Shown one piece after another: positions 7,506 through 28,752 of a stretch of 36,787 nucleotides of DNA (the stretch's first letter is position 1; each line of letters begins with the position of its first letter). Position numbers and translations under genes: made by a program. Source of the stretch: a virus (Duplodnaviria; Heunggongvirae; Uroviricota; Caudoviricetes); IMG/VR virus record IMGVR_UViG_2541047684_000007; one strand, given 5' to 3'. The notes under the pieces were generated by a model, which was given only the letters and a program-made list of their open reading frames with translations, ran no database searches and was not told the DNA's origin.

Positions 7506-7638
7506 TTTTTGGGACTCCTGGCTGATTAAGTATGTCGATAAGGCGTTTCCATCCGTCACGTAATTTACGGGTGATTCGTTCAAGTAAAGATTCGGAAGGG
7601 CAGCCAGCAACAGGCCACCCTGCAATGGCATATTGCAT
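7474..7638 (-). CDS. cIII: cIII (FtsH/HflB inhibitor, lysogeny regulator)
   Basis: Absent from the ORF track because it is only 54 aa. Manual translation of the minus strand from the ATG at 7636-7638 (SD AAGGAG) gives [54 protein letters not shown], which matches lambda CIII. Overlaps kil in another frame, as in lambda. Confidence 0.85.
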   Translation of the reverse strand: MQYAIAGWPVAGCPSESLLERITRKLRDGWKRLIDILNQPGVPKNGSNNYGYPD

Positions 7639-7710
7639 GGTGTGCTCCTTATTTATACATAACGAAAAACGCCTCGAGTGAAGCGTAATTGGTATGCGGT
7701 AACGCCGCGC

Positions 7711-16793: not shown

Positions 16794-16930
16794 TGTTTGA
16801 GTTTAATATGGCAGAACTTCTTCGCCACCGCTGGGGGCGTCTGCGCTTATATCGTTTCCTCGGTTCTGTTTTGACCGATTACCGAATACTGAAGAATTAC
16901 GCCAAAACCCTGACAGGAACAGGAGTATGA
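16790..16930 (+). CDS. ylcG: Small protein, YlcG-like
   Basis: Manual translation gives [46 protein letters not shown] (46 aa), overlapping the rusA stop. Resembles DLP12 YlcG. Not in the track (under 60 aa). Confidence 0.5.
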
Positions 16931-17015
16931 AGTCAGAGATAACAATCAACTAATACTGTTTTGTTGATTTTTGCTTGTAATTGGCGTTCTGGTCTGATTT
17001 TTGTGGAGTAAGTTG

Positions 17016-17399
17016 ATGCGTGATATTCAGATGGTTCTTGAGCGTTGGGGTGCGTGGGCGGCTAATAATCATGAAGATGTGACCTGGTCGTCCATTGCCG
17101 CCGGTTTTAAGGGATTAATTCCTTCAAAAGTAAAATCTCGCCCGCAATGTTGTGACGATGACGCGATGATCATTTGCGGGTGCATGGCCCGTCTGAAAAA
17201 GAACAACAGCGATTTACACGATTTATTAGTAGATTATTATGTATGTGGTATGACATTCATGTCACTGGCAAGTAAGCATTGCTGCTCGGATGGTTATATC
17301 GGGAAAAGGTTACAGAAGGCTGAGGGCATAATTGAAGGGATGTTAATGGCATTAGATATCCGGTTAGATATGGATATCGTTGCTAATAATTCTAATTGA
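17016..17399 (+). CDS. quuD: Late antiterminator Q (phage 82 / DLP12 QuuD type)
   Basis: 127 aa from [26 protein letters not shown]..., matching the short Q family (QuuD) rather than the 207-aa lambda Q. Confidence 0.8.
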
Positions 17400-17415
17400 T
17401 ATGCAATTGTTTACT

Positions 17416-17449
17416 AAAAGTTATTAAAAATGGGGCGTGGAAACGCCCC
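17416..17449 (-). terminator. Candidate rho-independent terminator for the porin gene
   Basis: Hairpin GGGGCGT-GGAA-ACGCCCC at 17432-17449, with a U-rich tract (AUUUUUAAUAACUUUU) following on the minus strand. Confidence 0.4.
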
Positions 17450-17536
17450 CAAAATAAAGGGTAATATATAACAGAAGGTTTATATAGTAAGAAGCAAGGT
17501 AGTGCTTCTAAAGGAAGTGGCTTGAGGGCTCCACTT

Positions 17537-17578
17537 ATATGTTGCGGAGGCAAAGCCTCCCGCAACATATCTTTTTCG
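17537..17578 (+). terminator. Rho-independent terminator downstream of Q (tR'-like)
   Basis: 14-bp stem ATATGTTGCGGAGG / CCTCCCGCAACATAT with loop CAAAG, followed by CTTTTTCG on the plus strand. Confidence 0.55.
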
Positions 17579-17587
17579 TAAGTCAGA

Positions 17588-18670
17588 TTAGAACTGATAA
17601 ACCAGACCTACAGCGACGATGTCGTCGGTATCAATACCAGCTGTTTTGGTAAACTTACTATCGTCAATTAAGTTGATTTTGTAATCAACAAAAGTGGACA
17701 TGTTTTTATTAAAGTAGTAAGTAGCACCGACATCGACATACTTGACTAAGTCTCGGTCACCATGAACACCAAGGTCTTTACCTTTTGACTGAAGGTAAGC
17801 AACAGATGGACGCAGACCGAAGTCAAACTGATATTGTGCTACTGCTTCAAAGTTTTGTGCTTTGTTTGCAATATGGTTATTATCAAAAACGGTCATATTC
17901 TGAGTTTCAGAATATGTGGTAGCCAGATAGATATTGTTCGCATCATATTTCAGGCCTGCAGCCCATACTTCCGCATTTTTGCCGGAGGCATTGAATTTGC
18001 TCTTACCATAGGCGACCTGACCGTCAGTGCGATCTGATTTAGCATAGGTTGCACCCACGCCGAATCCTTCATACTCATAAGTAGTGGAGAAACCGAAACC
18101 ATCACCATTGGCTTCAGTTACGTCAGTGCGGTCATTTTTACCCTGATACTGAGCAGCAAAGTTCAGGCCATCGACCAGACCAAAGAAGTCGTTGTTACGA
18201 TAAGTTGCAACACCAGTAGTGCGACCAGTCATGAACACATCTGTTTGGGTCCAGGTATCACCACCGAATTCTGGCAGAACGTCAGTCCACGCACCGATGT
18301 CGTATGCTACACCGTAGTTACGGCCGTAATCGATTGAGCCGTAATCACCAAATTTCAGGCCTGCAAATGCAAGACGGGTTTTGTCTTTGGAAGAACCTTG
18401 AGATTCAGCACGGTTGCCTTTGAATTCATATTCCCACTGACCGAAACCAGTCAGTTGATCGTTGATTTGGGTTTCACCTTTGAAGCCAAGACGGGCATAA
18501 GTAGTATCACCATCATCTGCATCATTAGAGGAGAAGTAGTGCTTGGCATTAACTTTCCCGTATAGATCCAGCTTGTTACTGTCTTTATTATAAATTTCAG
18601 CTGCCTGAGCAGACATCGCCATCAGTACTGATGCAGCTACAGCAGAAATTGCCACTGTTAATTTTTTCAT
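17588..18670 (-). CDS. nmpC: Outer-membrane general porin (NmpC/Lc/OmpC family), lysogenic-conversion moron
   Basis: 360 aa from the ATG at 18670. Signal peptide [23 protein letters not shown]. Near-identical to my recollection of DLP12 NmpC, with the typical porin C-terminus ...VAVGLVYQF. Opposite strand to the late operon; very AT-rich upstream region. Confidence 0.85.
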
Positions 18671-19107
18671 TGTACGCCCTTTTTTTGAACTTTTATTAAA
18701 AAATGATGTCACTGCGCGATAAATATTCATCTAATCAATGTGATTATTTCAAGATGTAAGTTTTAGTTTCTCATTTAATTTGTGAAGTAGATCTCTATTT
18801 TTATCTGAACCTTTTCTATCTAATCCTATTCATGGCTCTTGTCTGAACAAAAATAAATCTATTAGCTAATTTATATTAATGGCACTTATTTATAAGTGCT
18901 CTATAATTCTTTAGCTTAATTTAAACAAACTAAAAATAACATCGGAAATTATTAACTGGTTATTTGTTGAAGTTTTCTTATGCATTTGTGGTGGTGTTTT
19001 GAACACTCGGTGGCATTCTCACAAATATCATTTAGTAGTTTACGTACGTAAAAAATTGGTTATGCTGTTAAGAGTGGTTACTTCGTCACACAGCTTAAAC
19101 CCGCCGT

Positions 19108-19140
19108 CGAGCGGGTTTTTCCATTTTTTGAGTCTCGATA
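19108..19140 (+). terminator. Rho-independent terminator upstream of the lysis genes
   Basis: Stem CCCGC / GCGGG with loop CGTCGA, followed by TTTTTCCATTTTTTG on the plus strand. Confidence 0.5.
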
Positions 19141-19258
19141 TTAGCTGATAACCCAATACCTGAGTTATTCACTGACTCCGAATCTGTTACGTTTCTGCCT
19201 TTATTGCGATACGTAGTATCCCCTTAATTTACACCCGCTTTGTCTGCGAGGTGGGGTT

Positions 19259-19474
19259 ATGAAATCCATGGATAAGTTAACAACGGGTGTCGCCTATGGT
19301 ACCTCAGCAGGTAGTGCCGGGTACTGGTTTTTACAGTTGCTCGATAAAGTCACGCCCTCACAGTGGGCGGCAATAGGTGTGCTGGGTAGCCTGGTATTTG
19401 GCCTGCTGACGTACCTGACAAACCTTTATTTCAAGATTAAAGAAGATAAGCGCAAGGCTGCGAGAGGTGAATAA
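19259..19474 (+). CDS. S: Class II holin (phage 21 S-type pinholin)
   Basis: 71 aa, [71 protein letters not shown]. Two transmembrane segments and a dual-start motif (MKSM). Confidence 0.85.
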
Positions 19475-23061: not shown

Positions 23062-24961
23062 TGCAGCCGGTGCGATAGCTACAGGGCTTTTATCTCTCAT
23101 TATTCCTGTTCCACTGACGACAGTTCAGTGGGCCAATAAACATTATTACCTTCCTAAAGAGTCGTCTTATACCCCGGGGCGATGGGAAACACTGCCGTTT
23201 CAGGTTGGCATCATGAACTGTATGGGCAACGATCTGATTCGCACGGTTAACCTGATTAAATCTGCCCGTGTTGGTTATACAAAGATGTTGCTGGGAGTGG
23301 AGGCTTATTTTATTGAGCATAAATCACGCAACAGCCTTCTTTTTCAGCCCACGGACTCAGCTGCTGAAGATTTTATGAAATCTCATGTTGAGCCAACGAT
23401 AAGGGATGTTCCTGCATTGCTGGAGCTGGCTCCATGGTTCGGAAGAAAACACCGCGATAATACGCTCACCCTGAAGCGTTTTTCCTCCGGTGTGGGGTTC
23501 TGGTGTCTGGGTGGTGCGGCAGCAAAAAACTACCGTGAAAAATCCGTGGATGTGGTCTGTTATGACGAGCTTTCCTCGTTCGAACCGGATGTTGAAAAAG
23601 AGGGTTCGCCAACCCTGCTGGGGGATAAACGTATTGAGGGCTCTGTATGGCCAAAATCCATTCGCGGCTCGACGCCTAAAATCAAAGGCTCCTGCCAGAT
23701 CGAAAAAGCCGCTAACGAGTCGGCACACTTCATGCGTTTTTATGTGCCCTGTCCGCACTGTGGGGAGGAGCAGTATCTGAAATTTGGCGATGATGCCTCG
23801 CCTTTCGGTCTTAAGTGGGAGAAGAATAAGCCAGAAAGTGTTTTCTACCTTTGTGAGCATCATGGCTGTGTGATCCATCAGTCTGAGCTTGACCAGAGTA
23901 ACGGGCGGTGGATCTGTGAAAACACGGGCATGTGGACCCGTGACGGCCTGATGTTTTTCAGCGCCCGGGGTGATGAAATTCCGCCGCCGCGCTCCATCAC
24001 TTTCCATATCTGGACGGCGTACAGTCCGTTCACCACCTGGGTACAGATTGTCTATGACTGGCTGGATGCACTGAAAGATCCCAACGGCCTGAAAACCTTT
24101 GTGAACACCACGCTGGGCGAGACCTGGGAAGAGGCTGTGGGCGAAAAACTCGATCACCAGGTGCTGATGGATAAGGTTGTGCGTTACACGGCGGCGGTGC
24201 CTGCCCGGGTGGTTTATCTGACGGCGGGCATTGACTCGCAGCGAAACCGTTTTGAGATGTATGTCTGGGGATGGGCTCCGGGAGAGGAAGCCTTTCTGGT
24301 GGATAAAATCATCATTATGGGGCGTCCCGATGAGGAAGAGACGCTGTTACGTGTGGATGCGGCGATCAACAAAAAATACCGCCATGCGGATGGCACCGAA
24401 ATGACCATTTCCCGTGTCTGCTGGGACACCGGGGGGATCGATGGTGAAATCGTCTACCAGAGGTCAAAAAAACACGGTGTTTTCCGTGTGCTGCCGGTAA
24501 AAGGCGCGTCTGTCTATGGCAAGCCGGTGATCACCATGCCGAAAACCCGCAATCAGCGGGGCGTTTATCTGTGTGAAGTGGGGACGGACACCGCAAAAGA
24601 AATTCTCTATGCCCGTATGAAAGCCGAGCCCACGCCTGCGGATGAAGCCACGTCGTATGCCATCCGTTTTCCTGATGATCCGGAGATTTTTTCGCAGACA
24701 GAGGCGCAGCAACTGGTCGCGGAAGAGCTTGTGGAGAAGTGGGAAAAAGGAAAGATGCGTCTGCTGTGGGATAACAAAAAGCGGCGTAACGAAGCGCTGG
24801 ACTGCCTGGTGTATGCCTACGCGGCATTACGTGTGTCCGTGCAACGCTGGCAGCTTGATCTGGCTGTACTGGCAAAATCCCGGGAAGAAGAGACGACCCG
24901 GCCAACCCTTAAAGAACTGGCAGCGAAGCTGTCCGGAGGAGTGAATGGTTACAGTCGCTGA
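23033..24961 (+). CDS. A: Terminase large subunit A
   Basis: About 642 aa from the ATG at 23033, overlapping the Nu1 3' end as in lambda. Extensive similarity to lambda gpA (YYLPKES...GRWETLPFQ...KSARVGY...). Confidence 0.9.
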
Positions 24962-25151
24962 ACTGCAGGCGCTGCGTCAGGCGCGCCTTGATTTATTAAC
25001 CGGTAAACGGGTGGTGTCTGTCCAGAAAGATGGTCGAAGAATTGAATATACGGCGGCCTCTCTGGATGAGCTTAACCGGGCGATCAATGATGCGGAGTTG
25101 GTACTGGGGACAACCCGCCGTCGCCGTCGTCCGCTGGGAGTGAGGTTATGA
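24945..25151 (+). CDS. W: Head-tail joining protein W (copy 1)
   Basis: 68 aa, homologous to lambda W (...LLTGKRVVSVQKDGRRIEYTAASLDEL...). Confidence 0.85.
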   Translation: MVTVAELQALRQARLDLLTGKRVVSVQKDGRRIEYTAASLDELNRAINDAELVLGTTRRRRRPLGVRL

Positions 25152-26233
25152 AACGAACGCCTGTCCTGATTGATGTGAACGGCGTTCCGCTTCGTGAGAG
25201 TCTCAGCTACAACGGGGGCGGCGCAGGATTTGGCGGGCAAATGGCGGAGTGGTTGCCACCAGCGCAGAGTGCCGATGCAGCCCTGCTGCCTGCGTTGCGT
25301 CTGGGGAATGCCCGGGCAGATGATCTGGTGCGCAATAACGGGATAGCGGCTAATGCGGTGGCTCTGCATAAGGATCACATTGTCGGGCATATGTTTCTGA
25401 TCAGCTACCGTCCGAACTGGCGCTGGCTGGGGATGCGGGAGACCGCGGCAAAAAGCTTTGTCGATGAGGTGGAGGCGGCCTGGTCGGAATACGCCGAAGG
25501 GATGTTTGGCGAGATCGACGTGGAAGGAAAACGCACGTTCACGGAATTTATCCGTGAAGGTGTGGGCGTTCATGCGTTTAACGGCGAAATCTTTGTGCAG
25601 CCGGTCTGGGATACGGAAACCACGCAGTTATTCCGTACGCGTTTTAAAGCCGTGAGTCCGAAACGGGTGGACACGCCAGGACACGGTATGGGGAACCGTT
25701 TTCTGCGGGCCGGTGTGGAGGTCGATCGATATGGTCGTGCCGTTGCGTACCATATCTGTGAGGATGATTTTCCGTTCTCTGGTAGTGGACGATGGGAACG
25801 GATCCCGCGTGAACTTCCCACCGGGCGTCCGGCCATGCTGCATATTTTCGAGCCGGTGGAGGACGGGCAGACCCGTGGGGCTAATCAGTTTTACAGCGTC
25901 ATGGAACGGCTGAAGATGCTCGATTCCCTGCAGGCAACACAGCTTCAGTCGGCCATAGTGAAGGCGATGTATGCAGCGACGATTGAAAGTGAACTTGATA
26001 CCGAAAAGGCCTTTGAATATATCGCCGGCGCGCCACAGGAGCAGAAGGATAATCCGCTTATTAATATTCTGGAGAAGTTCTCCAGCTGGTATGACACGAA
26101 TAACGTGACACTGGGCGGTGTCAAAATTCCGCACCTTTTCCCTGGTGATGATCTGAAACTACAGACTGCGCAGGATTCATGGATAAGGTCGTGCATTACA
26201 CGGCGGCGGTGCCTGCCCGGGTGGTTTATCTGA
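25148..26233 (+). pseudogene. B: Truncated portal gene B (N-terminal ~344 codons), interrupted at the duplication junction
   Basis: Identical in-frame to the first ~344 aa of the intact portal at 27160..28752, then diverges at about 26179/26180 into out-of-frame terminase-A sequence, ending at a stop at 26233. Confidence 0.7.
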
Positions 26234-26973
26234 CGGCGGGCATTGACTCGCAGCGAAACCGTTTTGAGATGTATGTCTGGGGATGGGCACCGGGAGAGGA
26301 AGCTTTTCTGGTGGATAAAATCATCATTATGGGGCGTCCTGATGAGGAAGAGACGCTGTTACGTGTGGATGCGGCGATCAACAAAAAATACCGCCATGCA
26401 GACGGAACCGAAATGACCATTTCCCGTGTCTGCTGGGACATCGGGGGGATCGATGGCGAAATCGTTTATCAGAGGTCAAAAAAACACGGTGTTTTCCGGG
26501 TGCTGCCGGTAAAAGGCGCGTCTGTCTATGGCAAGCCGGTGATCACCATGCCGAAAACCCGCAATCAGCGGGGCGTTTATCTGTGTGAAGTGGGGACGGA
26601 CACCGCAAAAGAAATTCTCTATGCCCGTATGAAAGCCGAGCCCACGCCTGCGGATGAAGCCACGTCGTATGCCATCCGTTTTCCTGATGATCCGGAGATT
26701 TTTTCGCAGACAGAGGCGCAGCAACTGGTCGCGGAAGAGCTTGTGGAGAAGTGGGAAAAAGGAAAGATGCGTCTGCTGTGGGATAACAAAAAGCGGCGTA
26801 ACGAAGCGCTGGACTGCCTGGTGTATGCCTACGCGGCATTACGTGTGTCCGTGCAACGCTGGCAGCTTGATCTGGCTGTACTGGCAAAATCCCGGGAAGA
26901 AGAGACGACCCGGCCAACCCTTAAAGAACTGGCAGCGAAGCTGTCCGGAGGAGTGAATGGTTACAGTCGCTGA
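26179..26973 (+). pseudogene. Terminase A 3' fragment (C-terminal ~264 codons) from duplication copy 2
   Basis: Track ORF beginning [25 protein letters not shown]..., which is the C-terminal part of A (compare [12 protein letters not shown]... in the intact A). An ATG at 26179-26181 is formed at the junction with AGGA 4 nt upstream. Confidence 0.7.
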
Positions 26974-27163
26974 ACTGCAGGCGCTGCGTCAGGCGCGCCT
27001 TGATTTATTAACCGGTAAACGGGTGGTGTCTGTCCAGAAAGATGGACGAAGAATTGAATATACGGCGGCCTCTCTGGATGAGCTTAACCGGGCGATCAAT
27101 GATGCGGAGTCGGTACTGGGGACAACCCGGTGTCGCCGTCGTCCGCTGGGAGTGAGGTTATGA
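26957..27163 (+). CDS. W: Head-tail joining protein W (copy 2)
   Basis: 68 aa, differing from copy 1 at two residues (ESVLGTTRCRRRP versus ELVLGTTRRRRRP). Confidence 0.8.
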   Translation: MVTVAELQALRQARLDLLTGKRVVSVQKDGRRIEYTAASLDELNRAINDAESVLGTTRCRRRPLGVRL

Positions 27164-28752
27164 AACGAACGCCTGTCCTGATTGATGTGAACGGCGTTCC
27201 GCTTCGTGAGAGTCTCAGCTACAACGGGGGCGGTGCAGGATTTGGCGGGCAAATGGCTGAGTGGTTGCCACCGGCGCAGAGTGCCGATGCGGCCCTGCTG
27301 CCCGCGTTGCGTCTGGGGAATGCCCGGGCAGATGATCTGGTGCGCAATAACGGGATAGCGGCTAATGCGGTGGCCCTGCATAAGGATCATATTGTCGGGC
27401 ATATGTTTCTGATCAGCTACCGTCCGAACTGGCGCTGGCTGGGGATGCGGGAGACTGCGGCAAAAAGTTTTGTCGATGAGGTGGAGGCGGCCTGGTCGGA
27501 ATACGCCGAAGGGATGTTTGGCGAGATCGACGTGGAAGGGAAACGCACGTTTACGGAATTTATCCGTGAAGGTGTGGGCGTTCATGCGTTTAACGGCGAA
27601 ATCTTTGTGCAGCCGGTCTGGGATACGGAAACCACGCAGTTATTCCGTACGCGTTTTAAAGCCGTGAGTCCGAAACGGGTGGACACGCCTGGACACGGTA
27701 TGGGGAACCGTTTTCTGCGGGCCGGTGTGGAGGTCGATCGATATGGCCGTGCCGTCGCGTACCATATCTGTGAGGATGATTTTCCGTTCTCTGGTAGTGG
27801 ACGATGGGAACGGATCCCGCGTGAACTTCCCACCGGGCGTCCGGCCATGCTGCATATTTTCGAGCCGGTGGAGGACGGGCAGACCCGTGGGGCTAATCAG
27901 TTTTACAGCGTCATGGAACGGCTGAAGATGCTCGATTCCCTGCAGGCAACACAGCTTCAGTCGGCCATAGTGAAGGCGATGTATGCAGCGACGATTGAAA
28001 GTGAACTTGATACCGAAAAGGCCTTTGAATATATCGCCGGCGCGCCACAGGAGCAGAAGGATAATCCGCTTATTAATATTCTGGAGAAGTTCTCCAGCTG
28101 GTATGACACGAATAACGTGACACTGGGCGGTGTCAAAATTCCGCACCTTTTCCCTGGTGATGATCTGAAACTACAGACAGCGCAGGATTCAGACAATGGA
28201 TTTTCTGCGCTTGAACAGGCGCTGCTGCGGTATATCGCCGCCGGTCTTGGCGTTTCCTACGAACAGTTGTCCCGTGATTACTCGAAGGTCAGTTACTCAA
28301 GTGCCCGCGCCTCCGCCAATGAGTCGTGGCGCTATTTTATGGGGCGGCGAAAATTTATTGCGTCCCGGCTGGCCACGCAGATGTTTTCCTGCTGGCTGGA
28401 AGAGGCACTTCTTCGGGGGATTATTCGTCCGCCACGGGCACGTTTTGATTTTTATCAGGCGCGATCAGCCTGGTCACGGGCAGAGTGGATTGGTGCCGGA
28501 AGAATGGCCATTGACGGGCTCAAGGAGGTTCAGGAATCAGTGATGCGCATTGAGGCCGGACTGAGCACGTATGAGAAAGAGCTGGCGCTGATGGGCGAGG
28601 ATTATCAGGACATTTTCCGCCAGCAGGTCAGGGAATCTGCTGAGCGGCAAAAAGCCGGACTCTCACGTCCGGTGTGGATAGAGCAGGCGTATCAGCAGCA
28701 GATAGCGGAGAGTCGCAGGCCGGAAGAGGAGACAACACCACGTGAGACGTAA
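27160..28752 (+). CDS. B: Portal protein B (intact)
   Basis: 530 aa from MKRTPVLIDVNGVPLRESLSYNGGGAGFGGQMAEWLPP..., a lambda-family portal. Confidence 0.9.
   Translation: MKRTPVLIDVNGVPLRESLSYNGGGAGFGGQMAEWLPPAQSADAALLPALRLGNARADDLVRNNGIAANAVALHKDHIVGHMFLISYRPNWRWLGMRETAAKSFVDEVEAAWSEYAEGMFGEIDVEGKRTFTEFIREGVGVHAFNGEIFVQPVWDTETTQLFRTRFKAVSPKRVDTPGHGMGNRFLRAGVEVDRYGRAVAYHICEDDFPFSGSGRWERIPRELPTGRPAMLHIFEPVEDGQTRGANQFYSVMERLKMLDSLQATQLQSAIVKAMYAATIESELDTEKAFEYIAGAPQEQKDNPLINILEKFSSWYDTNNVTLGGVKIPHLFPGDDLKLQTAQDSDNGFSALEQALLRYIAAGLGVSYEQLSRDYSKVSYSSARASANESWRYFMGRRKFIASRLATQMFSCWLEEALLRGIIRPPRARFDFYQARSAWSRAEWIGAGRMAIDGLKEVQESVMRIEAGLSTYEKELALMGEDYQDIFRQQVRESAERQKAGLSRPVWIEQAYQQQIAESRRPEEETTPRET

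Follow-up and report, generated by a model that had tools for sequence, protein, structure and literature searches.

A reverse-oriented NmpC/Lc-type porin cassette between Q and its predicted late promoter in a lambda-like phage

The locus described here holds a porin gene on the minus strand between the antiterminator gene Q and the holin gene, both of which are on the plus strand. This arrangement raises the question of whether late transcription controlled by Q has to run antisense through the porin gene. The locus lies in a stretch of 36,787 nt (the window, meaning the whole of the DNA analysed), the first 26 kb of which is 99.9% identical to Escherichia phage PhiR57_1 by sequence comparison. 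Upstream of Q and on the same strand are lambda-type N, cI, cro, cII, O, P and nin genes, and the window is a lambda-like temperate phage; J and Stf fall outside it. The holin gene S is the first late gene and is followed by R and Rz (PhiR57_1 annotation). The preferred reading, to which a probability of about 0.85 is given, is that the porin gene and its ipeX tail form an autonomous cassette of ~1.6 kb that lies in reverse orientation between Q and Q's own promoter pR', and that the late operon is a separate unit. The features of the locus are collected in Table 1.

Table 1. Positions of the features between Q and the holin gene, in window coordinates.
Feature	Position	Strand	Basis or description
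Q antiterminator gene (QuuD type, 127 aa, Q21/Q933W family)	17016..17399	+	Pfam PF06530 Phage_antitermQ, E 6.7e-54
Structured porin 3'UTR, counterpart of ipeX of DLP12/PA-2	17421..17587	-	96% identical to K-12 quuD-nmpC spacer
Intrinsic terminator of porin/ipeX transcript	17426..17449	-	stem 17449-17432, U-run 17430-17426
First 3'UTR hairpin (stem-loop 17537-17570), then C-TTTTT on plus strand	17537..17576	.	possible terminator of transcripts coming from Q
NmpC/Lc-type general porin gene, intact, 360 aa	17588..18670	-	ORF with MKKL start at 18670
Porin signal peptide, residues 1-23, ending AQA/AE	18602-18670	-	PDB alignment
AT-rich tract, 25-29% GC	18650..19024	.	porin regulatory region and variable distal spacer
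Porin 5'UTR and promoter region (PnmpC homologue)	18671..18869	-	95% identical to K-12
Porin transcription start, inferred	near 18715-18717	-	read from sequence
Porin -10 GAATAT, inferred	18728-18723	-	read from sequence
Porin -35 TTGAAA, inferred	18752-18747	-	read from sequence; TTGAAA conserved in P7
Crp-like site TGTGAAGTAGATCTCT, putative	18781-18796	-	P7 alignment
Late promoter pR', predicted	19039..19066	+	-35 TTTACG 19039-19044, 16-nt spacer, -10 TATGCT 19061-19066; start about 19073
Conserved early transcribed block, presumed Q-utilisation/pause region, with AAGAGTGGTTAC at 19070-19081	19067..19096	+	933W qut annotation
tR' of late operon, predicted: hairpin AAACCCGC/GCGGGTTT and T-runs	19097..19129	+	homologous to first 933W terminator after pR'
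Holin S gene (P21 type)	19259..19474	+	Pfam PF04971, E 2e-35; PhiR57_1 annotation

The marks of a general porin are all present in the translation, namely the full domain (Pfam Porin_1, PF00267, model positions 1-337 of 337, E 3.7e-151), a cleavable signal peptide, PEFGGD within the loop-3 motif LPEFGGD, and a C-terminal aromatic residue in the terminal YQF. The first 23 residues are assigned to the signal peptide because alignment with mature OmpC and OmpF chains in the PDB begins at residue 24, just after the AQA end. Its closest sequences in the PDB are OmpC, OmpK36 and OmpK37 (E about 1e-135). The protein passes the NCBIfam cut-off for the OmpC subfamily (517.8 bits against 484), and it falls below the equivalog cut-offs for PhoE and OmpF. 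It is 91% identical to NmpC of E. coli K-12 over 346 residues, with the differences clustered at residues 181-235 and 262-266, and 81% identical to NmpC of phage P7. Chromosomal OmpC, OmpF and PhoE and Salmonella OmpD share the full-length Porin_1 domain, but the window porin differs from them in that a phage carries it, under a regulatory region of its own and with an ipeX tail. In some deposited records the start of the porin ORF is placed 60 nt too early.

High identity to NmpC, location on the opposite strand, and placement with a QuuD-type Q on one side and an EssD-type holin gene on the other together characterize the NmpC/Lc locus; all are found here, and the synteny is common to K-12 and nine other E. 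coli or phage copies. With the Pfam matches of both neighbours, to Phage_antitermQ and to the P21-type holin, these findings bear out the initial annotation of an NmpC/Lc-type porin with a signal peptide between Q and the holin. The comparison with DLP12 that had been proposed there is also the closest one. In DLP12 (qsr') of K-12, quuD, nmpC and essD are arranged and oriented alike; identity is 96% for Q and 95-96% for the two intergenic regions, and the three hairpins and the pR' block discussed below all occur there. The two loci differ by a 17-bp indel between tR' and S and by IS5, which lies in codon 347 of the K-12 porin whereas the window porin is intact; moreover, DLP12 is a remnant whereas the window element is a complete lambda-like phage. 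By these comparisons the locus is the intact counterpart of quuD-nmpC(::IS5)-essD. It is the well-known NmpC/Lc porin gene of lambda-like E. coli phages, already known and ordinary in itself, and it is the architecture that is corrected here. In phage PA-2 the gene lc (Lc, 'protein 2') is a catabolite-repressed porin gene of lysogenic conversion beside the Q/S region; ipeX forms part of its transcript, which reduces OmpC, the receptor for PA-2 (the ipeX part is backed by reviews). The parallel with the window locus is drawn from this description. Part of this ipeX/lc account was reportedly given by Castillo-Keller et al. in 2006.

The spacer between Q and the porin gene is 189 bp long. The porin 3'UTR within it folds into five local hairpins (-54.1 kcal/mol, z -7.0), and the 3'UTR of the P7 porin folds alike (z -5.3). 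Between the two, five base pairs have both partners substituted, where shuffled controls give 0.6, and the paired share of cells is 93%; in hairpin 3 the A-U/G-U variation pairs only in the minus-strand sense. When the conserved motif was searched for in one genome per species only three E. coli contigs matched, and the porin loci in IMG/VR are all at least 99% identical, so that the covariation comes essentially from one diverged sequence, that of P7. At the distal end of the 3'UTR a minus-strand hairpin (17449-17432) with seven pairs, six of them GC in the terminator scan, is followed by AUUUUU (-13.8 kcal/mol, z -2.9) and is predicted to end the transcript 33 nt from the Q stop codon. All E. 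coli copies keep its stem but vary in the loop, and the P7 equivalent is a GGGCGC/GCGCCC hairpin followed by U7. From the porin stop codon to the U-run is about 162-167 nt; reviews describe ipeX as an RNA of 167 nt that is made within the porin transcript and lowers OmpC and OmpF. The earlier proposal that this hairpin terminates the porin transcript is supported, both because it is kept with the cassette in P7 and because this distance fits. The untranslated stretch from stop codon to terminator is 96% identical to that of DLP12 and corresponds to the ipeX RNA tail of the porin mRNA; it would repress OmpC and OmpF post-transcriptionally, as the literature on its homologues describes. Rfam, in which there is no ipeX model, gave no matching family over the region at gathering or permissive thresholds; matches to sau-19 and Trp_leader (E 0.35-0.5) are chance matches to hairpins. 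A minus-strand ORF of 58 aa (17392-17568) matches nothing in Pfam or NCBIfam and sits in the structured UTR, and was rejected as a gene.

Q belongs to the Q21/Q933W family, an assignment that follows Yin et al., and matches the Q21 structures 6p18 and 6jnx (E 4e-8). It is 76-80% identical to Q of 933W and H-19B until about residue 120, after which the C-terminus is different and 17 residues shorter. The divergence is confined to this end, where the 933W gene overlaps pR'. A cassette of this family consists of a Q of PF06530 followed immediately by pR', qut and a terminator. The components are all present in the window but are split by the porin cassette: the block homologous to the one that overlaps the Q end in 933W and H-19B lies at 19039-19129 (aligned homology 19036-19125), 1.64 kb downstream. 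The Stx phages (933W, H-19B, Sakai Sp5/Sp15), whose Q is of the same Pfam family, have a homologous -35, spacing, early block and first hairpin. The promoter lines up position by position with the pR' annotated in 933W (TTTACG-16-TATCAT) and in H-19B. It is nearly invariant in nine E. coli copies, whereas P7 and the SF-166 remnant, which have the porin cassette, lose homology at this place. Only 8 of the 12 hexamer positions agree with the consensus, and the promoter falls under the threshold of the promoter scan. The early transcribed block does not vary among the window, cdtI, PhiR40_1 and 933W, despite differences in the -35 and the spacer, and its 12-mer AAGAGTGGTTAC has exactly one copy in the window. 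A frame upstream of pR' ends at TAA (19049-19051) with '...SVAFSQISFSSLRT', compared with '...SVFYQRKNSLRS' in 933W; as a relic of the Q C-terminus this is too weak to claim.

The homology of 19039-19129 to the pR' block of related Qs places the predicted late start near 19073, downstream of the porin gene, so that Q-modified polymerase would avoid the porin and meet only the terminator at 19097-19129. The porin gene is thus predicted to lie upstream of the late promoter and outside the late transcription unit. The initial annotation had it otherwise, with late transcription running antisense through the porin and past two plus-strand terminators and silencing the porin in lytic growth; this model places pR' directly after Q (17400-17536) and has Q-modified polymerase read through the hairpins at 17537-17578 and 19097-19129. 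Such a layout would agree with lambda, 933W and H-19B, in which pR' adjoins or overlaps the end of Q; a weak -10-like TAATAT (17462-17467) and a TATAGT (17483-17488) can be read in the spacer, and the hairpin at 17537-17576 with its T5 resembles a plus-strand terminator. However, the promoter scan finds nothing on the plus strand of 17400-17590, and the block conserved with pR' of the same Q family is at 19039-19129, its core 12-mer having no second copy. P7, whose porin has no Q annotated next to it, also conserves the spacer, including GGTAATA(T/A)ATAACA, and a late promoter therefore does not explain this conservation; the variation in hairpin 3 likewise fits minus-strand RNA only. A promoter in the style of phage 82, with TAATAT as -10, TATAGT as pause site and a late leader antisense to ipeX, was rejected on the same P7 conservation, on the pR' homologue at 19039-19129 and on a mismatch of features, since the published GCC at +15 to +17 is absent and Q is of the Q21/Q933W family. 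A late promoter directly after Q is thus highly improbable, and with it the claim that the porin is antisense to the late operon. On the corrected map the porin cassette would not be part of the late transcript, nor could it be silenced by Q-driven antisense transcription; at most, N-antiterminated early transcription that passes Q might act in this way.

All three hairpin and T-run elements listed as terminators in the initial annotation are real, although the third lies ~10 nt to the left of the 19108-19140 given for it. A simple terminator scan returned eight terminator-like sites in 5 kb against 4.3 expected, a count that is weak evidence by itself; the case for the three hairpins lies in their stability and conservation. 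The third, a plus-strand hairpin at 19097-19118 with T-runs to 19129 (-12 kcal/mol, z -2.9), is the only terminator between pR' and the holin gene. In Sakai Stx phages with a short Q of 144 aa, which is the annotated length of H-19B Q, the pR' start has been mapped by dRNA-seq and the 3' end of StxS lies 258 nt downstream, to within 1 nt of where 933W has its second annotated terminator. As this 258-nt StxS precursor extends to the second terminator, some polymerase evidently passes the Stx-phage homologue of the 19097-19129 hairpin even when Q is absent. The window differs in having neither this second terminator nor the 258-nt StxS leader. For late-gene reporters the pR'-tR' block to use would be 19039-19129, not the DNA adjoining Q, and the corrected map is relevant in the same way to prophage annotation and to the design of expression experiments.

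The hairpin nearest the porin gene (17537-17570) is stable on both strands (plus, -21.9 kcal/mol, z -6.1; minus, -23 kcal/mol, z -4.9). It is present with compensatory changes in P7 and belongs primarily to the porin 3'UTR. The plus-strand T-run that follows it measures T5 or T4 in the nine copies adjacent to Q. The SF-166 remnant has only T3 and P7 no T-run, and neither of these two has a Q annotated beside the porin. In the Q-adjacent copies the T-run probably stops early (pR) transcripts that leave Q without being antiterminated. In lambda, N-modified polymerase disregards downstream terminators. It is possible, if on balance unlikely, that in lytic growth N-antiterminated pR transcription passes both Q and this hairpin and runs antisense over ipeX and the porin, the hairpin and T5 acting as an insulating terminator in the prophage or when N is lacking, with the two units overlapping by ~150-165 nt (17426-17585). 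The lambda-type early genes upstream of Q and the distribution of the T-run agree with this. However, copies without an adjacent Q number only two, the porin 3'UTR already accounts for the hairpin, and the silencing effect is speculative and not needed for the anatomy. An extension of the same idea is distinctly doubtful: the 3' overlap of Q (RNA end 17537-17576) and porin-ipeX (17426-17449) would act as a two-way switch, in which porin/ipeX transcription in the lysogen damps leaky Q, perhaps by polymerase collision or an RNA duplex, and N-driven antisense transcription after induction shuts off the conversion functions. More generally, the gap between Q and pR' may be a dedicated slot for reverse cargo in QuuD-type phages, since cdtI and PhiR40_1 have other genes in it.

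On the preferred reading of a separate cassette, the porin has its own promoter. The initial annotation had taken 18731-19100 as an AT-rich promoter region; the AT-richness stands, but that interval mixes the porin promoter with pR'. The distal half of the AT-rich tract is the most variable part among the E. coli copies. In K-12 the nmpC start site, a G, has been mapped by 5' RACE, and PnmpC is abolished by deletion of -199 to -1, is described as Crp-activated and as repressed by OmpR, IHF and MprA, and is active enough to drive the IS5 transposase. At the position aligned with the putative Crp site of the window, P7 has a perfect TGTGA-N6-TCACA. By analogy with close homologues, the window porin would be expressed in lysogens in a Crp-dependent manner.

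In P7, a P1-like phage with a P1-type genome, the same cassette is flanked by ssb and odaA and has homologous 3'UTR hairpins, terminator, promoter-proximal blocks and Crp site and about 19 extra nt before the terminator; no Q, pR' or lysis cassette is annotated beside it. As P7 carries it in another genomic context, the cassette is an autonomous unit. It is a classical 'moron', an extra gene with its own promoter and terminator that is absent at the same position in related phages: 933W and H-19B are without it, and in both Q abuts pR'. Phages cdtI and PhiR40_1 share the layout of Q, reverse cargo and pR' block. Among their cargo genes Pfam gave only DUF6731, and PADLOC gave no match.

The proposed working of the locus follows from its homologues. 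A sigma-70, Crp-activated promoter less than ~200 bp from the start codon would transcribe the porin leftwards, as in K-12, and the mRNA would carry the structured ipeX 3'UTR of ~165 nt and end at the intrinsic terminator before the Q stop codon. A lysogen would thereby gain the NmpC/Lc porin while ipeX lowers host OmpC and OmpF, which according to the literature would remodel the outer membrane and the surface of phage receptors. In the late operon, Q would bind the pR'-qut block (19039-19096) and polymerase starting at ~19073 would pass tR' into S-R-Rz, the porin gene never being entered by late transcription. The locus is in itself a textbook case of lysogenic conversion, in which a phage porin and its RNA tail remodel the outer membrane of the host.

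The porin might instead be a quiescent passenger that hitch-hikes with the Q-S region and has no role for the phage. IS5 splits nmpC in K-12, IS1 interrupts the locus in strain EC24, and nmpC has been referred to as a quiescent porin gene in E. coli B. The passenger reading is very doubtful, however, given that the locus is very common, with a match in 3,343 of the 5,426 complete E. coli genomes (unbroken over 80% or more of the region in 2,466) and 454 loci in IMG/VR, and that the porin ORF is intact in inducible phages. The activity of the K-12 promoter and the conservation of 3'UTR structure and regulatory sites as far as P7 also argue for a functional cassette. The earlier suggestions that the porin is expressed in the lysogen and that the locus affects host porins both find support in work on homologues, the latter in what reviews say of ipeX. 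Expression of nmpC is strain- and condition-dependent because IS5 disrupts the gene in K-12. In LF82, NmpC of the Perceval prophage, which is 99.3% identical, is transcribed 10-fold above the prophage background.

By its gene content the record represents a temperate, lambda-like phage that is complete, with the order int, xis, exo/bet/gam, cIII, N, cI, cro, cII, O, P, nin genes, Q, porin, S-R-Rz, bor and lambda-type head and tail genes. The lambda cIII thermoregulator RNA element (RF01804 in Rfam) is matched over its full length and with a high score (88.5 bits), confirming a lambda-type early left operon. The region 16900–19300 has 100% identity to two Escherichia phages, ev017 and PhiR57_1, and PhiR57_1 aligns with window positions 1–26179 at 99.87% with a one-base offset. 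A tandem direct duplication of 2,012 bp (24167–28190), which is not present in PhiR57_1, runs from the 3' portion of the large terminase gene through W into the 5' portion of the portal gene; its copies differ at 32 positions (98.4% identical). If real it would disrupt the head genes, and it may stem from an assembly chimera.

The porin region, between the antiterminator gene Q and the P21-type holin gene S, is the already known nmpC/lc-ipeX locus in its intact form. The gene order in DLP12, the cryptic prophage of K-12 that carries nmpC, is the same (rusA-ylcG-quuD-nmpC(::IS5)-essD-rrrD-rzpD-borD), and the intergenic regions on either side of the porin share 96% and 95% identity with those of DLP12. 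Matches were found in 3,343 of the 5,426 complete genomes of E. coli, in 2,466 of them across 80% or more of the region, and at 454 loci in IMG/VR, which makes the locus extremely common.

Pfam Porin_1 covers the porin end to end (E 3.7e-151), the protein scores above the NCBIfam OmpC-subfamily cut-off, and it is 91% identical to K-12 NmpC with the differences grouped at residues 181–235 and 262–266. Because mature OmpC/OmpF chains in the PDB align from residue 24, the signal peptide comprises 23 residues, ending in AQA before AE, and the initial annotation of a minus-strand porin with a signal peptide is borne out. The deposited PhiR57_1 porin is 380 residues long and starts at an upstream ATG (window 17588–18730, minus strand); the 20 extra N-terminal residues fall within DNA that belongs to the mapped 5'UTR and the promoter. 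RefSeq genomes and the position of the signal peptide point to the MKKL at 18670 as the start.

The Q and porin stop codons are separated by 189 bp. On the minus strand this spacer reads as a porin 3'UTR, which folds into five local hairpins (-54.1 kcal/mol, z -7.0), the last of which is an intrinsic terminator, and ~162–167 nt separate the porin stop codon from its U-run. The spacer corresponds to ipeX, described as a 167-nt RNA produced within the porin transcript, and the earlier reading of the minus-strand hairpin as the end of the porin transcript is right because the 3'UTR/ipeX ends there. ipeX was reportedly defined by Castillo-Keller and colleagues in 2006 as the untranslated DNA from nmpC to its predicted terminator; they are also said to have found the identical sequence after lc of phage PA-2, whose lysogens reportedly lose OmpC. 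In phage P7 an 81%-identical porin lies between ssb and odaA, and its 3'UTR gives a matching series of hairpins. Across the alignment 93% of cells are paired, and five pairs are changed on both sides (0.6 in shuffles, 0–3 in slid controls), all five coming from P7, a thin sample. An A-to-G change in hairpin 3 of four E. coli copies gives G-U in the minus-strand RNA and C-A in the plus-strand RNA. Among species-representative genomes the conserved 3'UTR motif occurs in E. coli only.

All three hairpin/T-run elements initially annotated are present and stable, although the third had been placed about 10 nt too far right. They are split over two units, as shown or supported by homology, with two in the porin mRNA tail and one in the late leader. 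The element at 17537–17570 does have the hairpin and T-run of a plus-strand terminator, as proposed, but is primarily the first hairpin of the porin 3'UTR; the T-run counts five or four T residues in the nine Q-adjacent copies and three in E. coli SF-166, and P7 lacks it. The hairpin may serve additionally to halt early transcripts coming out of Q, in which case its plus-strand T5 would insulate the porin from early transcription without antitermination. N-modified polymerase may transcribe antisense across the porin after induction.

Positions of features in the window
Feature	Position	Strand	Remarks
cIII thermoregulator element	7593–7651	-	RF01804
Hairpin with AU5	17449–17432	-	-13.8 kcal/mol, z -2.9
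Hairpin with C-T5	17537–17570	+	-21.9 kcal/mol, z -6.1
Porin	17588–18670	-	MKKL start at 18670; 360 aa
Sigma-E-like promoter	18686–18719	+	TGAACTT-N16-TCACT; in porin 5'UTR DNA
GCAGUGAC	18706–18713	-	opens porin 5'UTR
Putative porin transcription start	near 18715–18717	-	predicted
Putative porin -10, GAATAT	18728–18723	-	predicted
Putative porin -35, TTGAAA	18752–18747	-	predicted
Crp-like site TGTGAAGTAGATCTCT	18781–18796		centred near -72.5
Sigma-70-like promoter	18879–18907	+	ATGGCA-17-TATAAT (10/12); AT-rich spacer; directed at pR' and S
pR' -35, TTTACG	19039–19044	+	then 16-nt spacer
pR' -10, TATGCT	19061–19066	+	colinear with 933W
Invariant AAGAGTGGTTAC	19070–19081	+	colinear with 933W
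tR' hairpin AAACCCGCC...GCGGGTTTTT	19097–19118	+	downstream of AAGAGTGGTTAC; T-runs to 19129; colinear with 933W; -12.0 kcal/mol, z -2.9
Indel CTGCCTTTATTGCGATA	19224–19240		17 bp; between tR' and holin start
Duplication, copy 1	24167–26178
Duplication, copy 2	26179–28190

A sensitive DNA search matched 19036–19120 to the end-of-Q region in ~290 Stx and related phages. In 933W the matching stretch is annotated with the late promoter pR' (TTTACG-16 nt-TATCAT) over the last Q codons, the Q-utilisation site qut and a rho-independent terminator, and the two sequences are colinear at this block. The window hexamers are weak (8/12 consensus positions); the block is almost invariant in nine E. coli/phage copies, and the AAGAGTGGTTAC core occurs once in the whole window. 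Homology ends at the block in P7 and the SF-166 remnant, both porin copies without annotated Q or lysis genes adjoining. The window Q belongs to the Q21/Q933W family (Pfam PF06530); it is 76–80% identical to the Q proteins of 933W and H-19B up to ~residue 120, exactly where the 933W Q gene meets its promoter, then diverges and is 17 residues shorter. The pR' start was located by dRNA-seq in Sakai Stx phages with a short 144-aa Q, with the StxS 3' end 258 nt downstream (Sy et al.); the annotated H-19B Q has the same length. Counted from the annotated 933W -10, the StxS 3' end lies no more than one base from the second terminator annotated in 933W, and this agreement identifies the annotated promoter as the experimentally mapped pR'.

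It is concluded that late transcription would begin near 19073, meet one terminator (tR', 19097–19129) and reach S 130 nt later, and that it would not cross the porin. The initial annotation had Q-dependent late transcription running antisense through the porin gene; the pR' homologue lies on the porin-S side and not beside Q. The mechanism proposed on that basis, silencing of the porin during lytic growth by antisense transcription that reads through two terminators, is unsupported, as pR' is downstream of the porin and a single terminator precedes S. In Stx phages the homologue of this terminator is partly read through. Three copies (PhiR29_1, CE0026a and DX6) carry a G-to-T change (GCGGG to GCTGG, aligned to 19111) on the 3' side of the tR' hairpin, with loss of one stem pair. 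PhiR29_1 was deposited as the complete genome of a phage, with E. coli ECOR13 named as host, so it seems that weakening of tR' can be tolerated. The indel CTGCCTTTATTGCGATA is present in the window and four aligned copies and not in K-12, E15, F1005 and EC1.

The AT-rich DNA noted upstream of the porin is confirmed (25–29% GC at 18650–19024). In K-12, PnmpC was lost on deletion of -199 to -1, and its start was mapped to a G by 5' RACE; Crp is described as its activator, and OmpR, IHF and MprA as its repressors. At the position aligned with TGTGAAGTAGATCTCT, P7 has a perfect TGTGA-N6-TCACA. The conserved GCAGUGAC, present in P7 too, is similar to the target of the RybB seed, GCCACUGC. RybB is reported to target nmpC mRNA in E. 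coli. The Perceval prophage of strain LF82 is 99.3% identical over the porin region, and in LB transcription of its NmpC gene is 10-fold above the prophage background, so that expression in the lysogen, as initially proposed, is documented for a near-identical phage. On direct evidence or by homology, the cassette forms an autonomous unit: it has a promoter and a terminator of its own and is set between Q and pR'. According to the literature, porin and ipeX remodel the lysogen's outer membrane.

The sole departure from the textbook Q cassette is the cargo separating Q from pR', which is common to DLP12 and to phages cdtI and PhiR40_1. The latter two, with a QuuD-like Q, share the layout of the window, with unrelated reverse-strand genes between Q and the pR' block that precedes the late genes. 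These are a 147-aa and a 313-aa (DUF6731) gene in cdtI (L099, 2169–4200) and one 148-aa gene in PhiR40_1 (L100, 1540–2640); none of them had a PADLOC match. The gap between Q and pR' looks like a slot that repeatedly receives cargo. In SF-166 (L008, 2500–4300) a DLP12 remnant retains emrE-ybcL-ybcM along with the porin cassette, which is intact and includes its 3'UTR and its promoter region; Q, pR' and the lysis genes have been lost and the porin adjoins chromosomal yedK. The porin cassette thus outlives prophage decay.

Two further promoter-like sites lie on the plus strand. In a K-12 study the DLP12 lysis-cassette promoter was cloned as -121 to +650, with Rueggeberg 2015 cited there for RpoE control. 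The forward primer of this clone maps to 18598–18617, which places +1 at ~18719, at the sigma-E-like site, back to back with the porin start and ~540 nt upstream of S; transcripts from here would still encounter tR'. The TTGAACT and GTCACTGC blocks are invariant in P7 as well. The TATAAT of the sigma-70-like site is retained in all E. coli copies, its surroundings being the most variable part of the region, and an 8-bp perfect palindrome, GCACTTAT/ATAAGTGC, overlaps this promoter in this window only.
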